A stretch of 64,000 bases of DNA from the NCBI GenBank assembly GCA_963807605.1, contig CAWECG010000003.1, forward strand, positions 96,001 through 160,000, given 5' to 3'. Made by a program: the position numbers and the translations under genes. The notes under the pieces are model-generated. The model did not search any database. It was not told the DNA's origin and was given only the letters and a program-made list of their open reading frames with translations. Below, in pieces: positions 8,840-55,031 of the stretch. Source of the stretch: Candidatus Bathyarchaeota archaeon. GTDB lineage: Archaea > Thermoproteota > Bathyarchaeia > 40CM-2-53-6 > RBG-13-38-9. How positions within the stretch are numbered: the first letter of the stretch is position 1; every line of letters starts with the position of its first letter.

Positions 8840-8848
8840 GCTTTTTCC

Positions 8849-11952: not shown

Positions 11953-11956
11953 CAAG

Positions 11957-15319: not shown

Positions 15320-15504
15320 CACAATCACCTACAAAACATGGAGTGTTCCCGCGTATTTTTCAAGGTTTCTAAAACCGTCAAACAATAAAGCAATGAAGGG
15401 GGCTACATCATATGTCAAATCAAGAGCTTTAAGCGACGGTTGAGGATTCAACTTAGCCGTGACAGAAACCGCTAAGGGTATCTTGTTGGCAACTATTTGG
15501 TGAG

Positions 15505-16074: not shown

Positions 16075-16280
16075 GCAACCAAATCGATACCGCCTATCGG
16101 GACGCTTAGAGTCGGTTTTACAGTCCAGGGATCTTCAGTCTATAGCAGTTATCAAAGATTGATCCACCCTGTTTGGCCATCGAGTTTCCAAAAAAAACGA
16201 CCTCCAAAACAAGATATATTAGCAAGATATTCTGTGTAAGCCTGCAACCAATATCAAGATTGGATTCAAAGTGACGTGTC

Positions 16281-17975: not shown

Positions 17976-18109
17976 TTACGTCCGCTTCCAAACTTGACTT
18001 GTCTTTTCACAGTTGTTTGATGTTTGGCCTTGGACATAAATGTCCACTACGGCCCTTCTGATAGACCGAGCCCCTGTTACACCAGTCGCGCGCGTCGCAA
18101 CCAGACAGA

Positions 18110-34625: not shown

Positions 34626-35585
34626 CTATATTGAAAGAAACGTCCTTACCAAAGTAAAGGCAAGGATGCAACTCAGAAGGGTTGAGATCGTCGCTCCAGA
34701 TAAGATGACATATACTGTCCGTCTGTTTATCATAGCTATTTGCTTGGTTAAAGCCGCGCCAATAATGCTGCCCATCAACACATGAGTGATTGACATGGGT
34801 ATTCCCCATTGTGTGAGAATCCACACTAGCGTCGCGCTCACAGTCATACTTGTGAACACCCCTTGAGGACTTAAGACAATAAACTTCTCTCCGACCGACT
34901 TTGTTATTGTCTGACCGAGTAGAAAAATCCCCAGAATAGTCGATGCTGAAATTATCAGTATCACTATCGCTTGATATGACTGGGATACAAGAGGACCGTA
35001 CAGTCCATTTATGAATCCAACGTTATTCGCGCCTAATGCATAAGACACTACAAATATTCCCAGCACTACGCTGAGTTGAGTCACTAGATCGGCAATGGAG
35101 AGACTAAGTCTTGAAACAGTGACTACCACAAGTCGATATACGAACATGGTAAGAATGCCCGAGAGTAAAGGAAGCAAGAGCCATGATGCCACAACAACCA
35201 TCAGATAGTTTACTTGAAGGGCCAGATTCAACCCGATAATCGCACCTACTGATGCCCCCACAGCCAGTAGAGAAAGGCTAGAGGGAACGTGTATCATCGA
35301 GAATGCAAACAGAACCACAATGCTCGTCAAGAGGGTTGCGAGTACTATCGCCGTATTGATGGTCGAAGATGACGATTCAGAACTCATCAGACCCCCAAAC
35401 AGAGTATGACTCATCTTCGCACCTTCCATTAAGGCTCCAGCCATAACGCCCAGTCCTGCCATTATTCTGCCTCTGCTATATCCCAGGACTCCAGACCCGT
35501 AAGAAGCGGTAATGATCATCCCCGAATTATTCCAGCCCATGAGAAAGCCCAATATTGAACCGATCACAATTAAGATGTAAAACAC
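34626..35585 (-). CDS. PiT-family inorganic phosphate transporter
   Basis: Multi-pass membrane protein with GWNN/GANN signatures and GIPMSITH. Confidence 0.85.
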   Translation of the reverse strand: MFYILIVIGSILGFLMGWNNSGMIITASYGSGVLGYSRGRIMAGLGVMAGALMEGAKMSHTLFGGLMSSESSSSTINTAIVLATLLTSIVVLFAFSMIHVPSSLSLLAVGASVGAIIGLNLALQVNYLMVVVASWLLLPLLSGILTMFVYRLVVVTVSRLSLSIADLVTQLSVVLGIFVVSYALGANNVGFINGLYGPLVSQSYQAIVILIISASTILGIFLLGQTITKSVGEKFIVLSPQGVFTSMTVSATLVWILTQWGIPMSITHVLMGSIIGAALTKQIAMINRRTVYVILSGATISTLLSCILAFTLVRTFLSI

Positions 35586-36278
35586 TTATCCATAACCTCG
35601 GATAATGAGGATAAATATCAAGTCACCTGCGTCCTTCGCGTTATCCGCTATTTGATCTGTAACATTAACAAAATTCCCTAATTGTATTATTCCAAGGGTA
35701 TCTCTGTTTTCAGATTTGCTGAAAAGGCTAGTCAAAAGGCGCGATTTGTATGCGTCTGCATCTTCCTCGACCTGCTTTATTTTATGCGTTCTTTCATAAG
35801 CTGTTTGTCTGTTTATGTTCAATCCTTTCACAGCAAAGTCCAAAGCATAGACCGTATCTCTGCACAGACTTAAAAATTTAACAAGATCATTTGTCCTAGT
35901 CAGACATTCAACGGTTGTTTTGTCGGGTTGCTCTTGAGTTAAGGTCGCCATTGCGTCTTTTGCAGTATCTGCGATGTCATCAATCTTGTTAATCAATTGG
36001 ATCAGTTCACTGAATATGCCTCCGAAATAGGAGCCCTCGCTAATCTTTTTGATGATGGATCTTTGTACTTCGTCAGCTTCATTTTCGAGAACATTCAATA
36101 CTCCGCCTATTCGATCCAGTTCCTGCCAATCCATGCGCTGTATTGGCTCGCAAATGCTCACCATCCGGTCTGCCATTTCCCTTACAATTTCTAAATGTCC
36201 TTCGATAAGATCGAATACAATATTCCTGCGATTGAGGGATTTGATCCATCTCATCATGCGCCTCACCAGCCATTTCAA
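35586..36278 (-). CDS. DUF47 (PhoU-like) phosphate transport regulator
   Basis: Duplicated E..AD and D.IAD helices; abuts the PiT gene. Confidence 0.85.
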   Translation of the reverse strand: MKWLVRRMMRWIKSLNRRNIVFDLIEGHLEIVREMADRMVSICEPIQRMDWQELDRIGGVLNVLENEADEVQRSIIKKISEGSYFGGIFSELIQLINKIDDIADTAKDAMATLTQEQPDKTTVECLTRTNDLVKFLSLCRDTVYALDFAVKGLNINRQTAYERTHKIKQVEEDADAYKSRLLTSLFSKSENRDTLGIIQLGNFVNVTDQIADNAKDAGDLIFILIIRGYG

Positions 36279-36367: not shown

Positions 36368-37177
36368 TTAATCTGGAATAACTATTTCATCAGCTGCCTT
36401 CTCTAGTTTGGGATAAGAGGGTTTCATCGCCTCTAGAGTTTCAACTATGATCTCACCGACAACAGAGTTGCGGTACCAATTATGATTGGCGGGGATAATG
36501 TGCCAAGGGGCATAAGAGGTGTGACATTCGGTAAGCATGCCTTCGAATGCTTTCACATAATCATCCCAGAGCTCACGCTCTTTAACATCGTTTGCGGAGA
36601 ACTTCCAATTCTTGTGAGGCGTCTGTCGCCGATCTTCTAATCGAACCTTCTGTTCGTCCTTTGAAATGTGTAAGAATAACTTCAGGATTGTTGTACCATT
36701 TTCTACGAGGTCACGCTCGAATTCGTTTATCATTCCATAACGCTTCCTCCATACTTTCTCAGGTACTAAATTGTGAACTCTTACAACGAGAACATCTTCG
36801 TATTGGGATCGATTGAATATGCCAATGAACCCCTTCTGGGGCACTTTTTGATGAATTCGCCATAGAAAATCATGAGATAATTCCTCAACTGAGGGCTGTT
36901 TGAAACTCGTTACTTGGACGCCTTGTGGGTTCACGCCACGAAAGATATGGCGGATCGTTCCATCTTTTCCGCCCGTATCGATCGCCTGCAGGATCACTAG
37001 AAGCGATTGCTTTCCTTCAGCATAGAGTGTCTCTTGGAGACGGTCCAATTTTTCTAGATTTTTTGTTAGTCTGGGCTCTATTTCATCTTTTTTCTTATAC
37101 GATCCTGTATAATTGGGATCATAGTCCTTAAGGGAGACTTTTTTATTGAAGGGAGGCACTATCGGTTGCTGAGGCAT
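36368..37177 (-). CDS. ppk2: Polyphosphate kinase 2 (probably class III)
   Basis: QAIDTGGKDG Walker A, HDFLWR and FNRSQYEDV. Confidence 0.92.
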   Translation of the reverse strand: MPQQPIVPPFNKKVSLKDYDPNYTGSYKKKDEIEPRLTKNLEKLDRLQETLYAEGKQSLLVILQAIDTGGKDGTIRHIFRGVNPQGVQVTSFKQPSVEELSHDFLWRIHQKVPQKGFIGIFNRSQYEDVLVVRVHNLVPEKVWRKRYGMINEFERDLVENGTTILKLFLHISKDEQKVRLEDRRQTPHKNWKFSANDVKERELWDDYVKAFEGMLTECHTSYAPWHIIPANHNWYRNSVVGEIIVETLEAMKPSYPKLEKAADEIVIPD

Positions 37178-37803: not shown

Positions 37804-38214
37804 TCACATTCGCGAGTTGACATCTTCGAGTAATTTCGTAACCTTTCTTTCTATCTCGTCTCTTATCTCCCGGACCTTTTCTATCGGCAGTCCTTTCGGG
37901 TCTTCGAGATGCCAGTCCGTCACTTTTTTGAAGAGGGGTGCCGGACATATTTTCTCAACACTGCATCCCATCGTTATAACCTGGTCAGCTTCTTCCACCA
38001 TCTTGGGGGTTAGCAGCTTAGGCGCGTTCGAGGATATGTCAATTCCCCTCTCTTTCATAACCTCAACCACAATGGGATTCACCTTCTCAGCCAATCTAAC
38101 GCCGGCGCTCGAAGCGATCACCTTGCCTTTTCCATATTGGTTTGCGAAAGCCTCAGCCATTTGGCTCCTGCCAGCATTCTCAACACAGACGAATAACATT
38201 CGTTTCATGTCCAT
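37804..38214 (-). CDS. arsC: Arsenate reductase, thioredoxin-coupled LMW-PTP type
   Basis: CVENAGRSQMAE P-loop, CSVEKICP redox pair and W.LEDP. Confidence 0.88.
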   Translation of the reverse strand: MDMKRMLFVCVENAGRSQMAEAFANQYGKGKVIASSAGVRLAEKVNPIVVEVMKERGIDISSNAPKLLTPKMVEEADQVITMGCSVEKICPAPLFKKVTDWHLEDPKGLPIEKVREIRDEIERKVTKLLEDVNSRM

Positions 38215-38255
38215 GCCATTTCCCTGCGTTCCAAGAATATGAGTGACGTTTGGTC

Positions 38256-38618
38256 CTACGCTCGTTTCCGCGTATACATACCGGTTAGGCATGTCGCCAC
38301 AAAGATCAAGACGAAAGGAATCCACGTTCCCAAAAGACTATCGAACATTCCAAGATTCTTGTTGACTAGTAGAGCTACAACAAAGAGGTCCGAAAGAATC
38401 ACAAAAGCGACAAATATGATTGCAGTCTGTAGCGGAGCAGTATAGCTGTATCTATTGAAGTAAACAAAAGATATTGCCACGGCAATGATTGGTGCAGCAA
38501 TTGCATGAATTATAATGGCATTCTGTAGAGACGTAATTTCCATGCCAATGCCCATAGTCATCCCGCAAAGCGCCCAAATTGCAAATGCAAATAATAGGAC
38601 AACGACAACCTTCCTCAT
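38256..38618 (-). CDS. Four-TM membrane protein
   Basis: Four hydrophobic segments in 120 aa. Confidence 0.7.
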   Translation of the reverse strand: MRKVVVVLLFAFAIWALCGMTMGIGMEITSLQNAIIIHAIAAPIIAVAISFVYFNRYSYTAPLQTAIIFVAFVILSDLFVVALLVNKNLGMFDSLLGTWIPFVLIFVATCLTGMYTRKRA

Positions 38619-40612: not shown

Positions 40613-42145
40613 CTGGGGGAAAGGAAAACGTCAACAGTCGCCGCAATTGATGTCGGCTCAAATGCTACGCGATTAGCGATAGCATCGGTCAACTACAATA
40701 ACCAGTTGAATGTGATTCAGACGTCTCGCGAACCAGTTCGCCTGGGACAGGATGTTTTTTCTGGCGGCAAGATATCAAACAAGAGATTGGACCAAGCAAT
40801 CGACGCATTTCTCGGATTTCGCAAGCAGATCGTTAGGAACAACGCAATGGTCACTAGAGCCGTGGCAACCAGCGCTTTAAGAGAGGCGACGAACCAAACC
40901 TATTTTGTCAATGAGATTGCAAAATCTACAGAAATCGAAATTGAAGTGATCAGCGCCGAGGAAGAAGCAAGGCTAATCCATCTTGCTGTATCAAGTAAAT
41001 TGAAACTGAATGGGAAACTAGCGATGCTTCTCGACATAGGCGGCGGGAGCGTAACAATGAGTTTCTCAAAAGACCGAAGAATCATTGCCTCACGAAGTTT
41101 TCCCCTGGGAACAGTTCGGCTCTTGAACATCTTTGAGGAGGAGAGAGGTAATGAAATCGTTTTGAATCAGTGGGTTGACAGGTACGTTGCGAATGCCTAC
41201 AAGACATTAAAAAAAGAAGTCAGCGGCCGAGAAATCGAAGTGTGTATCGGAACCGGAGGAAATCTTGAATCTCTAAGTGAACTGAGTGTAGAAGTCTGCT
41301 CGGCAGAAAAAGATGATCGCTTGACTTTTGATGAGTTAGACAGTATTCAAGATAGACTCAAAGAACTTACATACGAAGAACGAATCGAGAAGCTTGGATT
41401 ACGACCAGATCGTGCCGATGTCATAATTCCCGCTTCAATCGTTCTCAAGAGCATCCTTCATCATGTCCGAGCAAAGACGATCCTTGTTCCACACGTGGGA
41501 CTTAGAGAGGGCGTTCTACTGGGACTGATACCCAAGATAAATGGTGAGAAAGAGAGAATACCGCGCGAGCAGGTAATCTCATCCTCAAAGCAACTCGGGA
41601 AGAAGTATAATTATGATGAAAAGCATTCTCTAACCGTAGCGCACTTTGCGCTTCAGATATTTGATTCTACGAAGAGACTCCATGATCTGAATAATGACGA
41701 GAGGGTCATACTCGAAGCCGCCGCAATTCTTCATGATATTGGTCAATACGTACGAATGACAGATTATCCCAAACATTCATACTACTTGATTAACGCTTCG
41801 CCACTTATCGGGCTCAATGTCGTTCATAAATCAATTGTATCTAACATCGTTCGGTATCACGTCGACTTGCATCCGACCACGAAACACAAATCATTTCAAA
41901 ACCTCCCACCTAAGTACCGTCTTGTCGTCTCGAAGCTAGCGGCGATATTACGGGTAGCTGACGCATTGGATGAGGAACATACAGGTCACGTCAAGAAGCT
42001 GCACATTGATTACAGAAAGTCTGACCTTTTGATTCGGCTCGAAGGCAAGGGCGATCTATTACTAGAGAAATGGGCCGTGAGACGGAAGTCTAACTTATTT
42101 GAGAACGTTTTCGATACACGTGTACTGGTACTCGATGGGAACTAG
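40613..42145 (+). CDS. ppx: Exopolyphosphatase Ppx/GppA with C-terminal HD domain
   Basis: AAIDVGSN lies in frame upstream of the ORF-track start. Also ATSALREA, DIGGGS, RADVI, GLREG and LHDIG. Start placed at CTG 40613. Confidence 0.9.
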   Translation: MGERKTSTVAAIDVGSNATRLAIASVNYNNQLNVIQTSREPVRLGQDVFSGGKISNKRLDQAIDAFLGFRKQIVRNNAMVTRAVATSALREATNQTYFVNEIAKSTEIEIEVISAEEEARLIHLAVSSKLKLNGKLAMLLDIGGGSVTMSFSKDRRIIASRSFPLGTVRLLNIFEEERGNEIVLNQWVDRYVANAYKTLKKEVSGREIEVCIGTGGNLESLSELSVEVCSAEKDDRLTFDELDSIQDRLKELTYEERIEKLGLRPDRADVIIPASIVLKSILHHVRAKTILVPHVGLREGVLLGLIPKINGEKERIPREQVISSSKQLGKKYNYDEKHSLTVAHFALQIFDSTKRLHDLNNDERVILEAAAILHDIGQYVRMTDYPKHSYYLINASPLIGLNVVHKSIVSNIVRYHVDLHPTTKHKSFQNLPPKYRLVVSKLAAILRVADALDEEHTGHVKKLHIDYRKSDLLIRLEGKGDLLLEKWAVRRKSNLFENVFDTRVLVLDGN

Positions 42146-42276: not shown

Positions 42277-44622
42277 TCATTGAGGGTATGTCCAAAGAAC
42301 AATCAGATTCTTCTTGAAGAAATCAACGAACATATCCTTCTTCTTATTCAATGACTGCTCTTCCAAGATCGGATTCTGATTTACTGTACATTCAATCGTA
42401 ACGCTCGTAGGATCGCAAGTCACTTCCATTTGTTTTACAATTGTTCCATGCGAGAAGTCTAGCGCATCAGCAATTCTCAGTATTGATGATAGAGTCGTTA
42501 CCCTACGCCTGTCCTCAGGATTCAACGCAGCGTAATTGTAGTGTCTTGTCTTCGGAGCGTTTTTTCGGTGATATCTGGCAATACTCCCGATTATGTACCT
42601 CCCAGTAGAGGTGAAGGGAAGTTCAGAATCATTCAGTATCAGCTTAAGTGAATTCTTATTGTGCGCACTAGCACCTCGAGACCAGCCAATATCATGAAGT
42701 ATAGCCGCATATTCTAGCCAGCGACGCTCAGTAGCTCGTAGTTTATGGACTCTCTTGAGGCTGTCAAATAATTCCAGAGCAAGCTTTCTCACTTGTTCAG
42801 AGTGGGAGGATTCATTTTCATACTTACGAGCGACTTTCCTGACAATCTCCACTGTCCCTTTTCTTCTCCAAGCCGCCTTCCGTTTTACAGCGTTTTCGTC
42901 CTTGATGATATCCGCAAGCGAGACCCCGCGGAGCACCATTTGCGCGAAATGTTCAGGTAGCCCCTTCTTCCTTATTGCCTGGACAGCAGCCTCTAAATCA
43001 TATCTAACTCTAGTGAGTTCAACAGATAATGGATCGAAACTGATAACCGCGTATCCTGCTTCTGGATTCCGGTCGTAAGGTCTCCCTACGCTTCCCGGAT
43101 TTACGAATGTTACCGCATCAACCCTTCTGTGGAACTGCCTGTGCGAGTGACCAACAACAATAATGTCTGCAGCTGCATTCTTAGCAATAGTCCTTAGCCT
43201 CTCTTTCGATGTATTACGATAGAGATGTTCGTCTATCGATTCGGGGCTACCATGAACGACAAGAAGTCTTTTTCCTTTAATCTCAAGCGCAATTTCTCGT
43301 GGCAATGAGTTGAGATAGAGTTTGTTAGCTCTCGACAATTCCTTTCTCGAAAATTTTAGGGCAACATCTTTTTCGCCGTCGGCTTCCTTCTTGGCTTCCA
43401 ATACTCTAAGATCATAATTTCCGATTATACTGAGGACTCCATTGGCGCGTAACGTCTCGACGACCTCATTAGGGAAGGCGCAATATCCAACTAAATCACC
43501 CGCGTTTAGAAAGACATCTATGCCTTTGCTCCTTGCATCCTCAATTACGGCATTGAGTGCGTGTTGATTTGCGTGCACATCTGCCAACACAGCCATCTTC
43601 GGATGCTCAGCTTCAAGAAGCGATTTCACTCCCTTTTCAGCGCCCATAAACCCAGCACCTGTAATCTGTCTGAGCTGTTCGAAAGCTCCCTTCTCCTTAA
43701 CCTTCTCCCAGAATGAGACAAACTCTCTATATTTTGACCGTCTCATTTCTTGTATGTCTTGCAGGAATTGCAGAAGACCCCTCTCTACCGTCATTATATG
43801 TTCCGTGTTCTCCCTGTTGGAGAAGAGTTCATATCTGATCTCAGAGATGAACTTTGGAATGTAACCTATCCAAACATCGTAATCATGAAGCTCGCCAAGA
43901 ATGTCTTGAAAGTGTTGTACCGTGGATATGTATTCTTCCAGTTTGTCATCGTAATTCGAAGAAAATATCTCCATCGTGTAGCGCAACCATTTTGCACGGA
44001 TCCTCATTTCGTGGTGGTCGAGGGCATCATTCTCACGATGAACACAATCCTCCATTGCCAGAAAATCGCTTAGTTTTTCTGATATGTGAGCATGCGCCTT
44101 CGCATATGTCGATGACGAGTCGATTGGGATGCCCTCAATGTTCGCTTGTTGCTTGACTTGTTCACAATAACTCCGCATGTTTTCAATTACATGTGAATTC
44201 TTCAAGTGATCGAGGCCATCGTTGATATCTGGCTGCATTCTTGCCCTGCGGTCTCTATGCCTGGAAAGAAGAAGTCTTACGCCATCGCCTATTTTCTCAT
44301 CTTTCAGTCTCTCCAAATAGTTCGTGACGAAAGCTATTTGGACGTCTGTGTCCCTAGCTGCGCCGAGAGATTTTGTGACTCTCCTTATCTCTTTCAACCA
44401 TTCTTTGAAGAGTTTCTTGGGGGAGCATTCTTTGAAAAGAGGTAGCGCTGCTCTTATTCTGCGTGAGGCAACCCTCATCTTGTGTATATACTCTATCTCA
44501 TCGCTCTCTCTGACACCATCCATTTGATTCTCGAGTGCCTTGAGAAGTTTGGTGAGGCTCTCGGCCCCATATAGGCAGTAACTGGGGTCCTTCCCAGCAT
44601 CAGGACCTCTAGGCGAAGCCAT
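42277..44622 (-). CDS. CHAD + calcineurin-like metallophosphoesterase + Ppx-type HD domain fusion
   Basis: CHAD: IHKMRVASRR, RDTDV, HEMRI, QDILGELHD. Phosphoesterase: DVHAN, GDLVG, GNYD, HGSP, GHSH, NPGSVG. HD: HSEQV, LHDIG, ARYH, LRIADALD. Confidence 0.88.
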   Translation of the reverse strand: MASPRGPDAGKDPSYCLYGAESLTKLLKALENQMDGVRESDEIEYIHKMRVASRRIRAALPLFKECSPKKLFKEWLKEIRRVTKSLGAARDTDVQIAFVTNYLERLKDEKIGDGVRLLLSRHRDRRARMQPDINDGLDHLKNSHVIENMRSYCEQVKQQANIEGIPIDSSSTYAKAHAHISEKLSDFLAMEDCVHRENDALDHHEMRIRAKWLRYTMEIFSSNYDDKLEEYISTVQHFQDILGELHDYDVWIGYIPKFISEIRYELFSNRENTEHIMTVERGLLQFLQDIQEMRRSKYREFVSFWEKVKEKGAFEQLRQITGAGFMGAEKGVKSLLEAEHPKMAVLADVHANQHALNAVIEDARSKGIDVFLNAGDLVGYCAFPNEVVETLRANGVLSIIGNYDLRVLEAKKEADGEKDVALKFSRKELSRANKLYLNSLPREIALEIKGKRLLVVHGSPESIDEHLYRNTSKERLRTIAKNAAADIIVVGHSHRQFHRRVDAVTFVNPGSVGRPYDRNPEAGYAVISFDPLSVELTRVRYDLEAAVQAIRKKGLPEHFAQMVLRGVSLADIIKDENAVKRKAAWRRKGTVEIVRKVARKYENESSHSEQVRKLALELFDSLKRVHKLRATERRWLEYAAILHDIGWSRGASAHNKNSLKLILNDSELPFTSTGRYIIGSIARYHRKNAPKTRHYNYAALNPEDRRRVTTLSSILRIADALDFSHGTIVKQMEVTCDPTSVTIECTVNQNPILEEQSLNKKKDMFVDFFKKNLIVLWTYPQ

Positions 44623-46744
44623 GCCAGATACCTTTGTTCTCAATCAGCCAAGCCTGAGAATTCAGTTTCGGCTCATCTTTATTGGGAATAATTCTCTCGT
44701 AGCGGCCGTTCGGTAGAAGCTGCCTTGCCTTTACATTATCACTGAGATGAGCTTTCAACATATACTCTAGTATCGATCGCTTGAGTCTGTGATCCGGAAC
44801 TACGAAGAGCACCTCCACCCGTCTAGTTAAGTTTCTGGGCATCATGTCTGCGCTGCCGAGCAATAATTCTTCATCGTCGCCGTTCCTGAAATAATAGAGC
44901 CTGGCGTGTTCGAGGAACCGGCCAACTATGGATATTACTCTAATGTTTTCGCTTACACCTTTGATTCCGGGCCTAAGACAACATAGGCCCCTCACATTGA
45001 GATCGACCTTGACTCCTACCATTGAGGCTCGGTAAAGAGCTTGGATAATATCTTCGTCGACCAGTCCGTTCAGTTTGAAAGCGAGGTAGCCATTCCCATT
45101 TCTTCCATGACACATTATCTCTCTGTCGATGCGCTTCAAGATCTCGTTCTTGAGGTCTGAAGGAGCCACGAGCAGATATTTGTAATCCTCTTTTGGTGAG
45201 GCCCCAGCTAATAGGTCAAAGAGATTTGATATCTCGATGCCTATCTTGGGATTTGCAGTCAGGTAAGAGATGTCGCCGTAGATTCTCGTGGTGACTGCGT
45301 TATAGTTGCCTGTGCCTATATTTGAATACCTCACAATACGTTTGCCTTCTCTTTTGGTGACAAGACAAAGTTTTGCGTGTATTTTCAATTTAGGAAAGTT
45401 ATAAACAACATTTACGCCTGCCTTTTTCAGTTCATCTGTCACCAGCATATTGTGTTCTTCATCGAATTTTGCCTTCAATTCAACAATAGTTGTCACCTTC
45501 TTACCATGCCTTGCAGCCTCAACGAGCACGTCTATCAATGGTGACTTTTCATCTATTCGATAAAGAGTGAGACTAATCGAGACGACATCTGTATCCTGAG
45601 CTGCTTGTCTAAGCAGGCTAAGAATGATTTCAAAGCTGTCATATGGGTAGTAGAAAACATAATCTCTCTTGACAATCTCGTCGAATAAGTTTTTGTCTGG
45701 TTTCAGCTCTTCGGGAACAAATCGATGAAAAGCAGAGTCTTTGAGGTCGGGTCTATCTATTTTTAGTAGCTGCCAAAAGTCCACGAGACCCAGTGGTCCC
45801 CTTAGATTGTATACGAGGTAGGTGGGCAGACCGAACATATTTGCTAGGACTTCTCTCACACTCTCGGGCATCGAACTGTCCACCTCAAGTCTGCTGGGAG
45901 CGCCAGTCCTGCGGTGTTCCAGGCTTTTGTGCATGGTCCGAAGGAAATCTGAACCTTCGTCCACTAAGATCTCTATCTCCGCGTCCCGCGTCAGGCGGAA
46001 TAAGTATGCAGCTAACAAATCCCTGCCTGGAAGAAGAAGATCAAGATTTTGGGTTACAATGTCTTCAAGAAAAACAAGTTCAACAGTCTTTTCAATATTC
46101 GCTTTATTCTGCGAGGTCTTGACGTCGTGCGGAACTTCTATCAGCCTTTTGAATTGGTCGTTTGGTACATCGACCAAATAGTATTTCTCTTCCTGACCCT
46201 CCCTTGCGACAACAAAGAGGTTAAGTCTTAGGTTAGGGATGAACTCATGAAGAAAATCCTCGACGGGATTTTCAATATTCGGGAGTATCGTTTTTTTGAA
46301 ATACTCCCTAAGTATCGACTGTTTATTCTCATCAAGGTCACCCAGCCGGCGCAGATAAATGCCCTCTTTCGCCAGTTCCGGTAGCAACTCCTCCCTCCAA
46401 CACGTTGCGTGGCCTTCCAGAAGAGGAATTATCGCCTTTCTCGTAGTCTGAAGTTCATCGAATGCACCAAGTCCGTCCGGGCTCGTCTCCTTGATGCCAC
46501 GTTTTATCTTTTTTTGCATCTGAGAGACCCGAGTCATGAAGAATTCATCCAAGTTGCTGCCACATATCGCGAGAAATTTCACTCTCTCCAATAACGGGTG
46601 TGAGCGATCGTTTGCCTCTTCTAAGACACGCTCATTGAAGCTGATCCAGCTTAGCTCTCGATTGATGAACAGCTTAGGATCATTAAGAGACGGCCCCCCG
46701 CCTCCTTCGCCATTCCCTTTACGACCTGTTCCTCCCAGACTCAA
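44609..46744 (-). CDS. ppk1: Polyphosphate kinase 1
   Basis: NRELSW, SNLDEFF, KIHAK (phospho-His), GTGNYN, GRFLEH and SADMMPRNL. Confidence 0.95.
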   Translation of the reverse strand: MSLGGTGRKGNGEGGGGPSLNDPKLFINRELSWISFNERVLEEANDRSHPLLERVKFLAICGSNLDEFFMTRVSQMQKKIKRGIKETSPDGLGAFDELQTTRKAIIPLLEGHATCWREELLPELAKEGIYLRRLGDLDENKQSILREYFKKTILPNIENPVEDFLHEFIPNLRLNLFVVAREGQEEKYYLVDVPNDQFKRLIEVPHDVKTSQNKANIEKTVELVFLEDIVTQNLDLLLPGRDLLAAYLFRLTRDAEIEILVDEGSDFLRTMHKSLEHRRTGAPSRLEVDSSMPESVREVLANMFGLPTYLVYNLRGPLGLVDFWQLLKIDRPDLKDSAFHRFVPEELKPDKNLFDEIVKRDYVFYYPYDSFEIILSLLRQAAQDTDVVSISLTLYRIDEKSPLIDVLVEAARHGKKVTTIVELKAKFDEEHNMLVTDELKKAGVNVVYNFPKLKIHAKLCLVTKREGKRIVRYSNIGTGNYNAVTTRIYGDISYLTANPKIGIEISNLFDLLAGASPKEDYKYLLVAPSDLKNEILKRIDREIMCHGRNGNGYLAFKLNGLVDEDIIQALYRASMVGVKVDLNVRGLCCLRPGIKGVSENIRVISIVGRFLEHARLYYFRNGDDEELLLGSADMMPRNLTRRVEVLFVVPDHRLKRSILEYMLKAHLSDNVKARQLLPNGRYERIIPNKDEPKLNSQAWLIENKGIWHGFA

Positions 46745-46791
46745 GGACGTCTCCAGAATAGTTCACCTCACCAGACGGACACACCCACACG

Positions 46792-47367
46792 CTAGCCATC
46801 TATCGAACGATCTAGTTTGGCCAATTGATTCACCCTCAACCGTTTCTTCCTCGAATAATGATTTATTAGGTCCGTTGTTGACCAAGGCCTACATTCTTTA
46901 ATTTCATATCCGAGCAATCTCGCGCACTTATGAATAATATTCACATTCTTCGCTTCTATCTCAAGAAACTCAGGAATATAGTCATATTCATCCAGGTACT
47001 TGTCAAATTCGAATCTTGCGCCATCCAGTACGTAGCTTGTCCGATGTTTCCTCATTCTTGCATGTGCCGATAGTCCCAATGATTCTAGGATTTTCTTCAT
47101 ATTTTCAAGATCTGAAACAAGAACCTCATACTCATCAGCTACCTTAGCTTCTCCAGTATCCAGCAATTTCTTGAAGGTAAGCATAGATCTCCGGCCGTCT
47201 TTTCTCAGCCTAATTAGACTCCTTGCTTTTCTTATGGAACCATCCCTGAAATCATAGAATAGCGTGTCGATATCTCTGTCAGAAACCCTCTTTGCACCTA
47301 AAGAAAGTAATTTCCTTTCTGTTTGTTCTCTATTGATTTCGGTTATTTTGACTTCGATTTCATTCAT
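46792..47367 (-). CDS. CYTH-domain protein (class IV adenylate cyclase/triphosphate tunnel enzyme)
   Basis: N-terminal EIEVK, LIRLRK, LTFK and FLEIE. Confidence 0.88.
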   Translation of the reverse strand: MNEIEVKITEINREQTERKLLSLGAKRVSDRDIDTLFYDFRDGSIRKARSLIRLRKDGRRSMLTFKKLLDTGEAKVADEYEVLVSDLENMKKILESLGLSAHARMRKHRTSYVLDGARFEFDKYLDEYDYIPEFLEIEAKNVNIIHKCARLLGYEIKECRPWSTTDLINHYSRKKRLRVNQLAKLDRSIDG

Positions 47368-47558: not shown

Positions 47559-50500
47559 TTACCTTACTGGTATTGTTGCGCTTCTTCTCCAGCGTAGTAG
47601 GAACAGCGACGCAGCTAGAGCGGACACTAAGGCCACTAGTCCAGTTGCTGGGAACTCGGGTACCGGTACACCTGACTCATCAAGATAGAAGTTCTGGCCG
47701 CCGGCTACACCTCCCCAAGTTGCGACTACTGACTTTGCTGCGGTCTTGTACCCTGCACCTTGAGTTGTCACGCTGTAGGTGTCTGGCGTAACGTAGGTAT
47801 AGTATGTTCCGTCGTTGGGACCCCAAGCGTTCACGGTTGTATTGGAACCTTTTACTGTTGTTGTCTGCCAGGAGGCTAAGAGGTAGTCCCCTTGCCAGTT
47901 GCGCGTGTAGACTGTGCCTACGAGTCTGGATAAGAGATCCATCTCGAAGACCACGTTCGCCTTTCCTTCGCATGTCGTTGTGGCTGTAACTGTCGAAAGC
48001 TGGATGTATCTGCCCTGATAGTCGGGATACCAAGCCTCTGCGACGATTGTGTAAGTTCCAGGCTGTATTCCATAGCTTCTATAGTCACCTGAGTACCGGT
48101 TCTTAGAAGCACTCGGATAGTTCGCGAAAGGAGAGTAATAGCCGAACCTCTTCTTGTAGAGACCAGGGAAGCTGGATTTGTACCATAGGCCTCCTCCCGC
48201 CAAGGCAGATGCTGACGAACTGCCCGGGCCATTTGTGACTAGGTGGTTTTCTGGGGAGGTGAACTCGCCGAAGCCGAAGAGCTGGAAGACCCATGTTTGT
48301 ACGCCTGTTGGCTGGGCAGGATTAAGGTTTCCAGACCATGGCCACTGGCTAACAGTCCGGCTGGTATTCACGGGGACGCCTGTTATGTTCGCCGCGATGA
48401 GTGTACCATTCACATCGTACGCATTTATTCTGAACTGGAAGCTGTAAACATCGTTCGGCAGGGGCGCGGGGATCAGCTCCGTCTTAAAGTCCAAGGTGAC
48501 ATCGATCTCACTGCCCGTCAAGAGGTATATTGGAATGTCGCCTCCAGAGGAGCCTTGCTGGGCCCAAACTGAAGGGAACTGTTCCTGAACGTAGCCGATG
48601 GTGTAAGCATCCAGAGTATAGATGCCTGTTGGAAGCCCAGTTGGGACAAGGGCATCTCGTAGGTAATCGGCAGTACTTGTCTGCCAACCGTAGAATGCGT
48701 TGCTTCCTGAGAAGGTGATCGTGGAGGCCCCAGATACTTGATTCTGTTGGGTGTAGAAGCCTCCTGCAACCCAGTTATTCTTAGAGTCGAATACGTAGAC
48801 CCTTATTGGTGATGGAGGGTGAAGCCAGTTTACTGGTTGTGATGGGTCTTGGCAGTCGCGTGAATAGACTGTTGTTGTTATGTTGACTCCTTTGATCAGG
48901 TGGAAGCTGAGTGAGGCGTTCGTGCAATACGGGACTGTCACCTGCGGTAACTGCTCTTGGACATAGCCTGCATAGTATGCCTTGATAGTGTATGTGTCCT
49001 CCGGCATTCCGGATGGTGGCGCGTTTCTAGTCTTGGGCTCAGTGCCGTATCCGAGAAGCTCCAGACTCATCTCCGGCGTCCGCCGTGCTGCAGTCGCGAT
49101 ATTTGTGAAATTCCAGGCTCGGATTTTTCCGTAGGAATCCCAGGCCTCCATCACTAGCGGCGAGTTATCTATTGGTGCTACATCAGCCGAAGGCAGTTCT
49201 TGGTTGTGGAAGTGAACCGTCGCATTGATAGTTCCGCCCTTATAGAGATCCAAGAACTGGGAAACCACGCCGCCAGCAAACTCCACCGCTGGAAAGTTTA
49301 CCTGCAGAGGACCCACCGATTGCCAGTAACCGAAGACCCAGACATTGACATAATATTGTCCTGGGACGAGTCCGCATGTGAAGTGAGCGTTAGCATCCGG
49401 AACATGCCCGTCCCACTGGGTCTGGACTCCTGAATAGCCCGTAGGGTTGCCCAGGAATGTAGTGAAGTTCCTTGGGCTTGCAGATACGTTGAAATAATCG
49501 TCTCTCCAGCCCAGTCTGATACCGTCGGAGTCGTCGATCTCAACGCGATACAATGCGAATGGCCAACCTTTGAGCGGCTGTGGATTGGGGGGGTAAAGTG
49601 TGGCGAGCAGCTGGCCGACCTCTCCAAGACCAGCAGTTCCCGGTTTCGAACGTACTCCGAGAGTAGTATAGTCAGGCCAGTCAACTGGGCCTGTTGGACA
49701 CTTTGAATAGACAGTCAGACTGAACGGCGAATCCGGAAGAATGTAAATGTCGACTCCATGCACTGATTGACCTGTATTCACAGTGACTTGAGTAGCCAGA
49801 GTTGTGGGGACAAATCCTGCAGCACATGCTGTAAGCGTGTAGACGCCTGGTGCCAGACCCTCAATCTCATAGTAGCCGTCAGCGGTAGCGTTGAAGTAGC
49901 CTACGCCGGAGACAGATCTTCCTGTCGGCTGACCTGTTACTGGGTCTAGGGCTGTCCCGTTGGCGAAGACCTTGCCAGGAGTATTCACACCTAGGCCGTA
50001 ATAGGATCCGTAGTAGTAGGAGGAATGGCCTGCATACCTCACAGTACCTGTTATGTAACCTGGATCAACCTCCCCCTTCACAACCAGTTCCGGATAGTTC
50101 TCAGGCGGGAAAGACTCGTACTGCTCGTACAGGTCTGAGGGTAGGAGGTTCTTCGTGTAGAAGACTTTGAAGAAGTATTTCCCAGCAGTTGTTGGTGCCT
50201 GGATGTCGTAAGCTATTATCTCGTACATGCCGTAACGCCAGTCCGGCTTCTTGTACGGCTGCCTATCCTGGAATGGATCCTGTCCTGCGGAGTAGAGATA
50301 ATTTGATGATTTCTGGGTGGTGGGGTCGGTTACGTTTGGTGCTGAGATGGCTATGTACCACCAGTTTGGAGCCATAGGATGAGCCGCGTTGAATCTCCCA
50401 GTCGTGATGAAGCGATAATCACTGGTTATGCTTGTTACTACACGCCACTTTGAAGGTGTAGCTGCAACGGGGGTAAACTCTGGGGGGATAGCAATGTATA

Positions 50501-50921
50501 ACCATCTTCCTCTACCATTATGCTTCTCCCAGCTGATATTCAAGCCAGGCTGGTTAGGATTGGAGGCGTTGGCAGGGCTAGATATATTAATATAAAAGTA
50601 GAGCGGGCCAGTCGACCCGGTCACCACTGATCCGTTTGGGGAATAGTATTGATACTGGGCAGAGATCGGCTGATAGAATAGTCCTGGACTCACATATGCG
50701 AGATGTCCTGCCTCGAAACCCTGAGCCACAGCGTAAGAATTGTTAGCATGCTGATCAGGCATAGTATTTGTTGGATTCCCCATAGGCGCCTCAGGACCAC
50801 TCACTCCTTGATGCCCTAATGTATAGTGTGCCGAGACCTGCTGAACACCAGCAACGGCCGACAAAACCAGGATAGTCAAGATAGTTGTTGCTGCCATGAT
50901 TCTAGTATTCAAATGATTCAT
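47559..50921 (-). CDS. Large secreted cell-surface glycoprotein with repeated beta-sandwich units and PEF-CTERM sorting signal
   Basis: Signal peptide; about six GLxPGxYxxxxxxxG[YF]-like units; many N-x-S/T sequons; C-terminal VPEFP-TM-RWRR. Confidence 0.85.
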   Translation of the reverse strand: MNHLNTRIMAATTILTILVLSAVAGVQQVSAHYTLGHQGVSGPEAPMGNPTNTMPDQHANNSYAVAQGFEAGHLAYVSPGLFYQPISAQYQYYSPNGSVVTGSTGPLYFYINISSPANASNPNQPGLNISWEKHNGRGRWLYIAIPPEFTPVAATPSKWRVVTSITSDYRFITTGRFNAAHPMAPNWWYIAISAPNVTDPTTQKSSNYLYSAGQDPFQDRQPYKKPDWRYGMYEIIAYDIQAPTTAGKYFFKVFYTKNLLPSDLYEQYESFPPENYPELVVKGEVDPGYITGTVRYAGHSSYYYGSYYGLGVNTPGKVFANGTALDPVTGQPTGRSVSGVGYFNATADGYYEIEGLAPGVYTLTACAAGFVPTTLATQVTVNTGQSVHGVDIYILPDSPFSLTVYSKCPTGPVDWPDYTTLGVRSKPGTAGLGEVGQLLATLYPPNPQPLKGWPFALYRVEIDDSDGIRLGWRDDYFNVSASPRNFTTFLGNPTGYSGVQTQWDGHVPDANAHFTCGLVPGQYYVNVWVFGYWQSVGPLQVNFPAVEFAGGVVSQFLDLYKGGTINATVHFHNQELPSADVAPIDNSPLVMEAWDSYGKIRAWNFTNIATAARRTPEMSLELLGYGTEPKTRNAPPSGMPEDTYTIKAYYAGYVQEQLPQVTVPYCTNASLSFHLIKGVNITTTVYSRDCQDPSQPVNWLHPPSPIRVYVFDSKNNWVAGGFYTQQNQVSGASTITFSGSNAFYGWQTSTADYLRDALVPTGLPTGIYTLDAYTIGYVQEQFPSVWAQQGSSGGDIPIYLLTGSEIDVTLDFKTELIPAPLPNDVYSFQFRINAYDVNGTLIAANITGVPVNTSRTVSQWPWSGNLNPAQPTGVQTWVFQLFGFGEFTSPENHLVTNGPGSSSASALAGGGLWYKSSFPGLYKKRFGYYSPFANYPSASKNRYSGDYRSYGIQPGTYTIVAEAWYPDYQGRYIQLSTVTATTTCEGKANVVFEMDLLSRLVGTVYTRNWQGDYLLASWQTTTVKGSNTTVNAWGPNDGTYYTYVTPDTYSVTTQGAGYKTAAKSVVATWGGVAGGQNFYLDESGVPVPEFPATGLVALVSALAASLFLLRWRRSATIPVR

Positions 50922-51475: not shown

Positions 51476-52321
51476 TCATTCGGTCCCTCTGACTTTCGTC
51501 TTGGACACCGCTCTAACCGTGATGTTGATACCGAGGACGACGAGTAATAGGACTAAAGCAGCTCCCCATGCGAAGGTATGGGAGTTCGCGTAGGGCGATG
51601 TACCGAAGTCGTACATGAGGACAGTCAGTGAGGCAGCTGGATCGTTTAGACTTGTCATAAGGAATTGGCTTCCCAGCGCAGTGAAGAGTAACGGCGCGGT
51701 CTCACCCATTACACGCGCCACAGCCAGAGCGATCCCTGTAACGATGCCGCTCCTTGCACTTCCCAATGTGATGAAGAGAAGAGTTTTCGTTCTTGAGATT
51801 CCTAGCGCCAATCCCCCCTCTCTTACCGATGCTGAGACAACTCTGAGAGACTCATGAGAGGATATAGTGACTACAGGGATCATGATGAAGCCTAGCGCAA
51901 TTCCGCCGCTCAGAGCTGAGAATCGATGTTGGGTTGCTACAACTAGCTCGTAAACCACTATACCTGTGACAATTGAAGGGACACCTGTCAAAACCTCAGA
52001 TAGAAGCCTGATTTCAGAGGTGAGCCGGCCCGGGTACTCTGAAAGATACGCTCCACCTAATATCCCCAAGGGGATACCTATCATCGAAGCGAGGGCAACC
52101 ATTACCAAGCTACCTTCCAAGGCGTTGAGTATTCCACCACCGGTTCCTCCGATTGGAGGCGTGATTCTGGTGAAGAAATTTAGAGTCAAAGCTACGTAGC
52201 CTCGTGCAATAGTCTCGTATAGAATCGAGATAAGTGGAACCAAGGCAATGATAAATGATGTTGAGGCAAGCACGACGTAAAGAGCGTTGGTGAATCTTCG
52301 TTTTCGCTCTAGACCAGGCAA
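51476..52321 (-). CDS. pstA: Phosphate ABC transporter permease PstA
   Basis: GVPSIV, EGGLALG and ARVMGETAPLL. Confidence 0.93.
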   Translation of the reverse strand: MPGLERKRRFTNALYVVLASTSFIIALVPLISILYETIARGYVALTLNFFTRITPPIGGTGGGILNALEGSLVMVALASMIGIPLGILGGAYLSEYPGRLTSEIRLLSEVLTGVPSIVTGIVVYELVVATQHRFSALSGGIALGFIMIPVVTISSHESLRVVSASVREGGLALGISRTKTLLFITLGSARSGIVTGIALAVARVMGETAPLLFTALGSQFLMTSLNDPAASLTVLMYDFGTSPYANSHTFAWGAALVLLLVVLGINITVRAVSKTKVRGTE

Positions 52322-52326
52322 GATTT

Positions 52327-53328
52327 CTACCTCTTGATTTCAAAGCTGAATCTTCTGATCACAATTCGACCTGCGAGGTTCATGAGGAAAGTAATTAGGA
52401 TTAGGATCAACCCCAGTTCGAAAAGCGAGGCTAAATAAATGTTATTTCCCGCCACTTCAGTAAATTCATTGGCTATGACGCTCGGAATCGTGTATGCTGG
52501 CAGGAAGAGAGACGGCGATATTCTGGGAACGTTACCGATGACCATTGTAACTGCCATTGTCTCACCAATAGCTCGTCCCATTGCGAGCACTATCGCAGCC
52601 ACGATTCCTGATCGAGCAAAGGGCAGCACACTTGTCCGAATAGTCTCCCAGTTGGTTCCGCCGAGCGCGAGTGCAGCTTCTCTTTGGCTATGTGGGACCG
52701 CAGCTATGACTTCGCGCATGACCGATGATCCGTAAGGAATTATCATAATCGCGAGAATTGTTCCTGCGGTTAGCATGCCAAGGCCGGAGGTTGGTCCTGT
52801 GAAGAATGGAAGAAAGCCAAGATTTCTTCCTAGTTGGGGGTCTATGTAGTCACGCATGAAGGGTACAAGAACCAGGAGACCCCAGAGTCCATATACAACG
52901 CTGGGCACAGCTGCAAGCAACTCCACGATGAGAACAGAAGGAAGCTGTAAGCGCCGAGGGGTCGGTGGCTCAGACTGAAACAAAGCCACGCCGAGACTGA
53001 TGGGAACTGCAAGCATCAACGCGATCACTGTTGTTACGATTGACCCGTAGATTGCTGGTAGAGCGCCAAGCGACGGAGGTCCTCCGCTGGCAGGATTGGG
53101 TGTCCAATCTGTTCCAACTACGAATTGTAATCCGAACGCTCGAAACGCATCTAAGCTTCCGCTTGTAAGCGCATAAATTACAAATACTCCAATGAGGGGA
53201 ACTGAAAATGCTGTCACCATAACTAGTAGACGGAAAAAATCTGGGAAATGAATGGTCGACTTGGAGCGTTGCTTTGCCTGGGGCGTTGTGGAAGAAATCG
53301 TTGTCAAGAGCGCGCCAGCTTCTTGCAT
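52327..53328 (-). CDS. pstC: Phosphate ABC transporter permease PstC
   Basis: ELLAAVPSVVYGLWG, EAALALG and GRAIGETMAV. Confidence 0.93.
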   Translation of the reverse strand: MQEAGALLTTISSTTPQAKQRSKSTIHFPDFFRLLVMVTAFSVPLIGVFVIYALTSGSLDAFRAFGLQFVVGTDWTPNPASGGPPSLGALPAIYGSIVTTVIALMLAVPISLGVALFQSEPPTPRRLQLPSVLIVELLAAVPSVVYGLWGLLVLVPFMRDYIDPQLGRNLGFLPFFTGPTSGLGMLTAGTILAIMIIPYGSSVMREVIAAVPHSQREAALALGGTNWETIRTSVLPFARSGIVAAIVLAMGRAIGETMAVTMVIGNVPRISPSLFLPAYTIPSVIANEFTEVAGNNIYLASLFELGLILILITFLMNLAGRIVIRRFSFEIKR

Positions 53329-53347
53329 ATTGGGTTTTCTATAGCTT

Positions 53348-53722
53348 TTATTCTTCTCTGATTATGTATGGGCAGATGTGTGGGTGGCAGTCTCTCTTCT
53401 TTGTCCTGCAGAATCCGTCTTTGCTGTGTCTGCATATCTGCTTGAGCTTGGTGAAAGTCGATGTGACAAGGCTCGTGTAGCGTCCTTTTAGGGTGAGGTT
53501 AATATGTTGTGTAAGTTTTGGAGTTAAACAGTAGCTGTATTCTGGTCTACCACGCCTATTTTCGGCTTTTTCTGATCTTTGAACTAGGCCCTCATCCATC
53601 AAGTCTTTCCGGTAACGCTTCAACGTATTATGAGAGAGCCCACCTTTGGCCAGGATCTCCTTGAAAGTCTTTGATGAGTCATCTTTCAAGGAGTCTAGAA
53701 TAAGCTGATCAAAGGAGTCCAT
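53348..53722 (-). CDS. Winged-HTH protein with C-terminal Cys4 cluster
   Basis: LSHNTL...GRP.Y.Y HTH/wing; CR....GFC......C....CP tail. Confidence 0.75.
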   Translation of the reverse strand: MDSFDQLILDSLKDDSSKTFKEILAKGGLSHNTLKRYRKDLMDEGLVQRSEKAENRRGRPEYSYCLTPKLTQHINLTLKGRYTSLVTSTFTKLKQICRHSKDGFCRTKKRDCHPHICPYIIREE

Positions 53723-53795
53723 ACCATTAAGATATGAAAACATGGATATTAAAAAAACCGTTTTTAGCCATTTTAGCAAGAGGCTTGCGCGCTCT

Positions 53796-55031
53796 CTACC
53801 CCGTTATCAACTGGGCGCCGTTGAAGGTCAGTGAGAGTAGTAGCTTTTCGTCAGCTGCCACTATATTTGCTGGTAGAGGAACGTAGATCAGAGCAGGCGC
53901 ATACTGTTGGCCGTCGTGTATTGCCCACCAGAAGAATTTTGCTAAAGCTTGTGCCTTCACGTTGTTCATGCTTGGATTCGTGGACATCTCGTGGTAAAAC
54001 AGAAGATAAGTATAAGTCGCAATTGGATATGATTCAGCGCCCTGTGCGTTGACTATGTGTAGGCGAAGGTCGCTCCAGTTGGGGGTTCCTGTGGCATTTT
54101 CTGCTGCATATGCAATTGTCTGCAATGTTGGGACAACGAAGTTTTCTGCAGCGTTTTTTACGGCCCCTACTCCCAGGTTTTGGCTGACCGCATAAATGAC
54201 ATCGACGTATCCTATCGCTCCAGGGATGTTCGATACGGCTCCTGCTACTCCTGCATTACCCTTGGCCCCGACACCATTCGCTGTCTTGTCAACTGGCCAT
54301 GTCACTGAAGTGCTTCTGCCTACTATCTGTTTCCAATCGGGATTTACCGTTGAAAGGAAGTCTGTGAAAGCATAAGTTGTCCCGCTACCGTCAGACCTAT
54401 GCACTGCGGTTATTGTTGCGTCAGGCAGCTTCAGACCTGGATTGACCTGTTGAAGTGTAGGCGCGTCCCACTTAGTAATTCGACCTCGGTAGATGTCCGC
54501 AAGTATGGCCCCTGTGAAATTGATGTGTATGCTATTTGACACGCCGCTAGGCACTAGGTTGTACGTTATTGCTACGCCACCTAGCGTTTCAGGCATTAAG
54601 ACTATGCCTGTGGCATTAGCTAGCTGAGTGTCGGACAGGGGTGCGTCCGATGCTCCGAAGTCTACCGTCTTCTTAGTAATTTGCTGTATTCCTCCGCCGC
54701 TCCCGATAGGGTTGTAGTTTATTTTTACTGATGGGTTGAGTGTGTTGTACTGCACTGTCCAATTTTGGATGAGTGGTGCTGGAAATGTGGCTCCGGCACC
54801 TTGCAACATGACAGATTGATTCCCTCCTGACGAGGTCGATGGTGTAGACATAGTGTTCGTAGGCACAGTGCTCGTAAACGTTGTTGTCGGAGACTCGGTA
54901 CTGGTCTGCATACCGGGTTTGTACTGATATTCAAATGCGCCTGCGATTATCGCAACTGCTACAATAACGATAACTGCAAGCCGAGTAAGATTTCGCTTTG
55001 TCAGATTTCCCTTTGTCTCTTTGTTTGACAA
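53796..55031 (-). CDS. pstS: Phosphate-binding protein PstS, N-terminally membrane anchored
   Basis: GAGATFP, GSGGG, DFGASD and RSDGSGTT; TM helix plus Thr/Ser linker. Confidence 0.95.
   Translation of the reverse strand: MSNKETKGNLTKRNLTRLAVIVIVAVAIIAGAFEYQYKPGMQTSTESPTTTFTSTVPTNTMSTPSTSSGGNQSVMLQGAGATFPAPLIQNWTVQYNTLNPSVKINYNPIGSGGGIQQITKKTVDFGASDAPLSDTQLANATGIVLMPETLGGVAITYNLVPSGVSNSIHINFTGAILADIYRGRITKWDAPTLQQVNPGLKLPDATITAVHRSDGSGTTYAFTDFLSTVNPDWKQIVGRSTSVTWPVDKTANGVGAKGNAGVAGAVSNIPGAIGYVDVIYAVSQNLGVGAVKNAAENFVVPTLQTIAYAAENATGTPNWSDLRLHIVNAQGAESYPIATYTYLLFYHEMSTNPSMNNVKAQALAKFFWWAIHDGQQYAPALIYVPLPANIVAADEKLLLSLTFNGAQLITG

Follow-up and report, generated by a model that had tools for sequence, protein, structure and literature searches.

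A protein joining CHAD, metallophosphoesterase and exopolyphosphatase-tail domains beside ppk1 in Bathyarchaeia: a candidate polyphosphate-docked phosphohydrolase

The turnover of polyphosphate (polyP) in prokaryotes is currently explained by PPK1, PPK2, PPX and triphosphate tunnel metalloenzymes (TTM). Endopolyphosphatase, which cuts polyP internally, is said not to occur in bacteria according to a review (PMC11352482), and a survey found no endopolyphosphatase homologue in any archaeon (PMC6864096). The window analyzed here, a stretch of 64,000 nucleotides of contig CAWECG010000003.1 from a Candidatus Bathyarchaeota archaeon (assembly GCA_963807605.1), contains next to ppk1 a gene that appears to join a CHAD domain, a metallophosphoesterase (MPE) domain and the C-terminal part of a PPX; we refer to this tri-domain gene and its product as TRI. 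An earlier note, made from the DNA sequence alone, had called the tri-domain protein unusual and proposed it to be a granule-tethered endopolyphosphatase or chain-length editor, whose tripolyphosphate end product CYTH would remove. We wanted to know whether this architecture is real, how widely it occurs, and which function its sequence, predicted structure and gene neighborhood suggest.

TRI lies in an uninterrupted open frame of 788 codons on the reverse strand (42277-44643), which in a mechanical reading begins with the TTG codon at 44643. The start of the gene was placed at the ATG codon at 44622-44620 (Met8 of the frame, giving a protein of 781 amino acids), because all 23 aligned homologues begin at the residue matching Met8. 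Pfam matches were obtained for CHAD (PF05235; residues 30-259, 157.8 bits versus a cut-off of 25.6), Metallophos_2 (residues 349-536, 88.4 bits versus 27) and Ppx-GppA_III (PF21447; residues 601-765, 66.4 bits versus 27), the last of which overlaps a match to HD (PF01966; 31.5 bits). By every test run, its sequence places TRI in the CHAD, MPE and HD/PPX-domain-III families. The ASKHA catalytic domain of PPX enzymes (Ppx-GppA, PF02541) gave no match in the Pfam scan, and a classification of TRI as a PPX was rejected because this domain is missing. Its absence had been seen correctly in the earlier note; the description of the C-terminal part as a Ppx-type HD domain was too narrow, because this part corresponds to the whole PPX tail. 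A YgiF-type enzyme was likewise rejected, because CYTH is encoded by a separate gene of 191 amino acids, two genes upstream. The TRI family is already present in databases under the generic names “YfcE family phosphodiesterase” and “CHAD domain-containing protein”. The former is a generic label for TRI, which barely passes the YfcE subfamily model TIGR00040 (61.5 versus 56.25) and misses the cut-off of the equivalog model NF006988 (43.8 versus 117; both NCBIfam), so that TRI was rejected as a YfcE equivalog.

A word-indexed search of 5.8 billion proteins yielded 795 relatives of TRI. The best 120 of these are 47-89% identical to TRI, come from many independent assemblies and, without exception, carry all three domains in one chain. 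Species-representative genomes contain 262 relatives, the best 80 of which are nearly all labelled Bathyarchaeota or Bathyarchaeia, and a few Methanolliviera, Methanomassiliicoccaceae or Thermoplasmatota; the bacterial SMAG labels (e.g., Methylomirabilota) on several of these 80 are probably wrong. These results bear on the possibility, which the earlier note had itself named as refuting its proposal, that an error of assembly or gene calling had joined separate genes. Split versions, in which a CHAD gene is followed by an MPE-HD gene, exist in other phyla and could be taken to favor such an error. However, the frame of TRI is unbroken, 66 non-redundant fused genes are present in species-representative genomes in addition to the best 120 homologues, and the AlphaFold2 (AF2) model is confident across both linkers save residues 331-333. 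An artefact was therefore rejected, and we regard the chance of one as negligible. In this model (mean pLDDT 87.4, pTM 0.63), the only other stretch of low confidence is formed by the first ~17 residues, mostly upstream of the real start. The three-domain architecture thus stands, but to call it “unusual” was an overstatement, given hundreds of family members and split-gene versions in several bacterial and archaeal phyla.

Conservation was tabulated for 67 sequences, namely the 66 non-redundant fused genes and the window protein. The phosphoesterase metal motifs of TRI, which the earlier note had read as intact and which are so, are DVH (355-357), GD (382-383), GNYD (408-411), H464 and GHSH (498-501). 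Their ligands D355, H357, D383, N409, D411 and H464 are each found in all 67 sequences, and the motif V histidines H499 and H501 in 65 and 66, respectively; the complete MPE metal-ligand set is kept in 64 of the 67 sequences at an overall identity of 40-65%. The HD set consists of H614, H650-D651 and D726; the first three residues are invariant, and D726 is present in 63 sequences; of the four that differ, three have an alignment gap there. Residues H54, R57, R61, R62, H211, R214, K218 and R221 of the CHAD domain are each found in all 67 sequences, and R97 is invariant in a 24-sequence alignment. This would be the pattern of a working rather than a decayed enzyme, and a dead pseudo-enzyme was rejected because the ligands are almost invariant. 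In one subgroup of TRI proteins (P0027, P0054, P0068 and P0105), some members are without the motif V histidines or other metal ligands, and several bear Gln/Pro-rich C-terminal extensions.

The same counts speak against the explanation that TRI is a non-hydrolytic, phosin-type scaffold or regulator, which would coat or organize polyP granules or modulate PPK1, and whose metal sites would bind polyP or metal. CHAD proteins are phosins and associate with granules (PMC6537752, citing Tumlirsch and Jendrossek 2017). Moreover, CHAD-HD proteins without MPE occupy the same operon slot (L042 and L043, see below), the C-terminal domains serve for structure or binding in bacterial PPX, and the motif V histidines have been lost in a few paralogues. 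Nevertheless, retention of the full MPE ligand set in nearly all sequences is as expected of an active enzyme, and TRI has a canonical HD dyad at a position where HE, or no dyad at all, is seen in solved bacterial PPXs. We consider a purely structural or regulatory role quite improbable.

Which ligands might the two outer domains bind? The CHAD part is all-helical in the AF2 model (residues 20-342), and Foldseek matched it to the Chlorobaculum tepidum CHAD-polyP complex 6qva (TMt 0.74). Residues H54, R57, R61 and R97 of TRI align to His253, Arg256, Arg260 and Arg296 of CtCHAD, which contact polyP and whose mutation cuts binding 6- to 150-fold (PMC6537752). TRI shares its long-type fold, its conserved basic polyP ligands and its position in polyP gene clusters with the stand-alone CHAD phosins (R. 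eutropha PptA/B, S. solfataricus SsCHAD and CtCHAD), which, in contrast to TRI, have no enzymatic domains. A CHAD domain joined to a phosphoanhydride hydrolase is also found in the CYTH(TTM)-CHAD short-chain polyphosphatases of the E. coli YgiF type, where CHAD raises the polyPase activity (PMC6537752). A CYTH gene occurs in the TRI gene cluster too, but in TRI itself the CHAD domain is fused to a two-metal MPE and an HD-type PPX tail, and CYTH is separate.

The last ~200 residues of TRI were matched by Foldseek to the C-terminal half of PPX (3rf0, TMt 0.72; 1u6z and 8jgx), and they align to residues 351-483 of D. radiodurans PPX with an E value of 1.5e-18. They are homologous to domains III-IV of the long Ppx/GppA exopolyphosphatases (E. 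coli PPX 1u6z/2flo; D. radiodurans 8jgo), with which TRI also shares its location in an operon of the ppk-ppx type; unlike these enzymes, TRI is without the ASKHA domains I-II and has an MPE in their place. In E. coli PPX, the C-terminal part is the polyP-binding and processivity module; Bolesch and Keasling in 2000, and Saito et al., reportedly found that it binds polyP, and it is said to serve as a polyP probe. From these similarities, TRI carries two putative polyP-docking modules, CHAD and the PPX tail, and not one. Its HD dyad is canonical (LHDIG) and is accompanied by the first His and the last Asp, as in the neighboring PPX, whereas the solved bacterial PPXs have LHE (E. coli and D. radiodurans) or no dyad (H. 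pylori). Because the canonical dyad is kept, unlike in those structures, the HD site of TRI may be active or metal-loaded.

The central part of TRI is predicted to form an alpha-beta-beta-alpha sandwich with the C-terminal helices of the SapH/PF1291 subgroup of MPEs. Its Foldseek matches are P. furiosus 1nnw, Sphaerobacter 3rqz and pneumococcal SapH 3qfm (TMt 0.80-0.83, root-mean-square deviation 2.1-3.4 Å), and lambda phosphatase is among the distant fold matches of TRI. SapH/Spr1479, PF1291 (1nnw), PH1004 (2gju) and 3rqz belong to the same subgroup, including the C-terminal helical extension (TMt ~0.8, identity 24-30%), but are single-domain proteins without polyP modules, and none is known to act on polyP. 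The title of PDB entry 3qfm describes SapH as an asymmetric diadenosine tetraphosphate (Ap4A) hydrolase and phosphodiesterase. Jiang et al. are said to have found in 2011 that SapH hydrolyses ATP and diadenosine oligophosphates (ApnA) and that Trp67 is required; since SapH cleaves these compounds, the MPE subgroup would be able to cleave phosphoanhydride chains. Trp67 aligns to Tyr410 of TRI, these residues replacing the motif III histidine in the two proteins, respectively. Across the 67 sequences, the position after GN in motif III is variable (Y in 39, F in 18, then V, L, M and C).

The relationship to SapH also suggests other substrates. TRI might be a granule-tethered hydrolase of nucleoside oligophosphates or short phosphoanhydrides (Ap4A, p4A/p4G, ATP, P3-P5), clearing over-phosphorylated nucleotides made by PPK1/PPK2 at the polyP surface, with CHAD and the PPX tail merely localizing it. 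Besides the reported ATP/ApnA hydrolase activity of SapH, the nearest characterized MPE homologue, this is favored by the frequent action of HD domains on nucleotides and by PPK2 being a conserved neighbor. However, the AMP pocket is reportedly, in the SapH paper, specific to streptococci, two separate polyP-binding modules would be a costly means of mere localization, and TRI is tightly coupled to ppk1, not to ppk2. We therefore judge nucleoside oligophosphates or other short phosphoanhydrides unlikely to be the substrates that matter, even though the nearby CYTH triphosphatase could clear the inorganic triphosphate (PPPi) arising from them (PMC8233210). The yeast endopolyphosphatases Ppn2 and Ppn1 offer a functional analogy, of a kind that the earlier note had already drawn with eukaryotic enzymes. 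Like the MPE of TRI, these are of the metallophosphatase type, and they cut polyP internally (PMC11352482, PMC4350845); unlike TRI, they belong to other superfamily branches, are eukaryotic and vacuolar, and have neither CHAD nor a PPX tail. TRI may work like these enzymes, the link being one of shared superfamily membership only.

The gene neighborhood has made the connection with polyP much stronger than it was in the earlier note, through conserved synteny and co-occurrence with ppk1, which add to the conserved polyP ligands of CHAD. In the window, as had been noticed before, ppk1 overlaps TRI and CYTH and ppx adjoin; the TAG stop codon of ppk1 and the ATG of TRI overlap by 14 nt, within the string ATGGCTTCGCCTAG. 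A total of 17 loci, spread over three GTDB families of the class, keep the order CYTH-ppk1-TRI-ppx-ppk2, and the ppk1/TRI junction is overlapping, or nearly so, in the conserved loci. The ppx gene converges on TRI in the window and in genus g23, and in family f17 it comes directly after TRI in the same orientation. In family f22, a CHAD-HD protein without MPE takes the place of TRI between ppk1 and ppx (L042 and L043); the HD part in L042 is in two overlapping pieces, which may reflect a frameshift. Many Bathyarchaeia have two tandem copies of TRI. The second copy in L029 adjoins a short ppk1 remnant (residues ~600-706), which suggests that ppk1-TRI was duplicated and that one ppk1 then decayed.

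A protein language model gave, as leads only, bacterial proteins of ~450 amino acids with an MPE-HD arrangement and both bacterial and archaeal CHAD-HD proteins, and these leads were then tested by search. With residues 349-770 of TRI as the query, many proteins of 436-471 amino acids were found that contain Metallophos_2 and Ppx-GppA_III and are without CHAD. These MPE-HD proteins share 43-53% identity with TRI, and the source names given for them are Methanophagales, ANME-2, Anaerolineaceae and Poribacteria; when 18 of them were aligned and used as the query, 568 relatives were recovered from species-representative genomes. We inspected 33 MPE-HD loci outside Bathyarchaeia, from the archaeal groups ANME-1/2 and Methanomassiliicoccales and from Anaerolineae, Thermoflexia, Planctomycetota, Brocadiia, Phycisphaerae, Synergistota, WOR-3 and Hydrogenedentota. 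In 26 of these loci, a ppk1 gene is no more than 4 kb away from the MPE-HD gene, and in many cases it lies upstream at a distance of only 0-34 nt. Among the remaining seven, ppk2 is alongside in three, and another three are located at the end of a contig or on a short contig. CHAD is fused, encoded by a separate gene directly upstream, or found a few kb away. For ppx, only hits of full length were relied on, because a PPX query also picks up the tail of the MPE-HD gene. These arrangements make TRI the “Rosetta stone” of a ppk1-CHAD-(MPE-HD)-ppx cluster found in archaea and bacteria alike, with CHAD and MPE-HD fused. A lineage-specific oddity was rejected, because split and fused forms are spread over many phyla.

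Among 301 sampled Bathyarchaeia genomes, ppk1 is present in 22, TRI or CHAD-HD in 20 and both in 19; because of the kinship among these genomes, the counts serve as description and not as a statistical test. In the single genome with TRI only (G015), the locus is cut by a contig end. Of those with ppk1 only, one has a gene fragment (G165) and another a gene at a contig edge (G223). In the clear case, G185, ppk1 is divergent (35% identity) and preceded by ppx, and TRI is absent, which suggests that its ppx-ppk1 pair was separately acquired. Neither ppk1 nor TRI was seen in G001, the other genome of the window's genus (90% complete), and the polyP island is therefore accessory.

This close attachment to ppk1 could also be that of a granule protein phosphatase, whose target might be, for instance, PPK1 in its phospho-histidine intermediate or (poly)phosphorylated granule proteins, and which would so be a brake on PPK1. 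Translational coupling of TRI to ppk1 and the strict co-occurrence of both genes fit such a role, and the MPE superfamily includes protein phosphatases, with lambda phosphatase as the distant fold match mentioned above. However, the closest relatives of the MPE are small-molecule hydrolases and not PPP-type phosphatases, and nothing points specifically to a protein substrate, so we hold this possibility to be very improbable.

Taking sequence, predicted fold and gene order together, we lean slightly towards TRI being a cytoplasmic, polyP-docked phosphohydrolase and a partner of PPK1. Since their genes overlap, TRI and PPK1 would be produced in coordination. The polyP chain or granule would be gripped both by CHAD at the N-terminus and by the PPX tail at the C-terminus, and this docking would present its phosphoanhydride bonds to the central SapH-type MPE, whose two-metal site would hydrolyse them. 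The HD site (H..HD..D) would either be catalytic as well, again with metal, or bind polyP through metal. The neighboring PPX and the CYTH triphosphatase would then finish short products, or PPK2 would recycle them. We infer polyP to be the substrate, and a hand-over of products from TRI to CYTH and PPX would fit with it; for internal rather than chain-end cleavage, our opinion is about evenly divided. A role distinct from that of PPX is favored, because PPX is encoded beside TRI and the triphosphatase is a conserved neighbor. It is also possible, though on balance we doubt it, that prokaryotes have their missing endopolyphosphatase in the MPE-HD unit. The unit would then serve PPK1 as a dedicated partner in several phyla of bacteria and archaea, and it would set chain length or mobilize granules via two different metal sites on one chain-threading scaffold.

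Several points weigh against a polyP-docked phosphohydrolase. With PPX next door, a second polyphosphatase is not obviously needed, and SapH, the nearest characterized relative, acts on nucleotides (ATP, ApnA) and phosphodiester, not on polyP. The residue after GN in motif III varies, so that the usual general-acid histidine is missing. In family f22, a CHAD-HD protein without MPE is found in the same slot, and the MPE is therefore dispensable for the role of the CHAD-HD core. The pTM of the AF2 model, which concerns inter-domain geometry, is only 0.63, and no paper characterizing a CHAD-MPE-HD or MPE-HD protein was found within the literature searched. TRI is nonetheless a concrete candidate for a missing step, be it internal cleavage, chain-length control or granule mobilization. 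Many anaerobes of soils, peat and sediments, archaeal as well as bacterial, have TRI or its split form after ppk1, and, if the reading is true, TRI would add a new enzyme class to phosphorus cycling and provide an annotation for hundreds of generically labelled genes.

The positions of TRI, of its neighbors and of the comparison loci are given in Table 1. The window as a whole is a phosphate island around the polyP genes, in which pstS, pstC and pstA are present and no pstB was seen adjoining pstA.

Table 1. Features of the window and of comparison loci in other Bathyarchaeia.
Feature	Position	Strand	Basis
TRI (CHAD + MPE + PPX tail)	42277..44622	-	Pfam, homologue alignment, AF2 model
CHAD domain, long type, two four-helix bundles, residues ~20-330	43654..44586	-	Pfam, AF2, Foldseek
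MPE domain, SapH / PF1291 / 3rqz subgroup, all metal ligands present, residues ~345-575	42919..43611	-	Pfam, Foldseek
PPX tail, HD-type domain III, then small alpha/beta end domain, residues 586-788	42280..42888	-	Pfam, Foldseek
ppk1 (polyphosphate kinase 1)	44609-46744	-	TIGR03705, 738 bits
CYTH / triphosphate tunnel metalloenzyme, stand-alone, 191 aa, N-terminal ExExK	46792..47367	-	Pfam
ppx, Ppx-GppA catalytic domains + HD tail, convergent on TRI	40628..42145	+	Pfam
ppk2 (polyphosphate kinase 2), in conserved neighborhood	36368..37177	-	
PHO4-type transporter and PhoU_div (DUF47) gene	34626-36278		
Low-molecular-weight phosphatase / ArsC-like gene	37804-38325		
pstS, pstC, pstA	51476-55031		
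1120-aa open reading frame directly upstream of CYTH	47559-50921	-	CarboxypepD_reg = only Pfam match
CHAD-HD loci, family f22	L042 (G152:C10) 8119-9626; L043 (G230:C30) 8541-10040		
Tandem TRI copies	L029 (G285:C11) 3165-5814 and 9589-13960		
Tandem TRI copies, further contigs	L047/L062, L054/L073, L078/L084, L066/L068, L067/L097		
Divergent ppx-ppk1 without TRI	L198 (G185:C187) 15210-18162		

The CYTH gene is located upstream of ppk1, with a gap of 47 nt, and the nearest solved relatives of its product are P. horikoshii 2dc4 and S. acidocaldarius SaTTM (7ns8). SaTTM favors inorganic triphosphate ~19-fold over nucleoside triphosphates and also degrades tetraphosphate (PMC8233210); by analogy, a PPPi-clearing role of CYTH is plausible.

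The ppx gene is the sole Ppx-GppA match in the genome (PF02541, 152.6 bits), and its end is separated from the stop codon of TRI by 131 nt. The earlier note had described it as a normal ppx converging on TRI. It is convergent and its catalytic domains are present, but it has no canonical start codon. The frame is open from 40583, and the phosphate-binding motif AAIDVGSN precedes the first ATG, GTG or TTG (40706). Orthologues, which begin M/L-P-K/R-L-AAIDVGSN, have ATG or TTG at the position where the window has ACG (40628-40630), preceded by the purine-rich stretch GGGGGAAAGGA; an out-of-frame ATG at 40582 lies ahead of a G5/A-rich run. The ACG could be a weak non-canonical start, a start-codon mutation silencing the only ppx of the genome, or a sequencing error.

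The only in-frame start codon of ppk1 is a TTG. Within the region 46691-46744, there is also an ATG (46713-46711), which is shifted by one base relative to the frame and lies shortly ahead of a run of six Gs (46699-46694); with one G more, the gene would have an ATG start reading MAKEAGGPSLNDPKLF. The N-termini of ppk1 homologues are too variable to settle the start.

The 1120-amino-acid open reading frame upstream of CYTH has a GC content of 52-54%, versus ~45% around it, and a relative that is 31% identical lies ~3.6 kb from TRI in locus L037. Elsewhere in the same genome (G000:C3:816192-816902), a stand-alone metallophosphoesterase of ~235 amino acids is encoded that is 30-40% identical to the MPE domain of TRI. 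Such stand-alone proteins are present in many genomes of the order and class that have neither ppk1 nor TRI, and we therefore regard them as a separate paralogue outside the polyP module.

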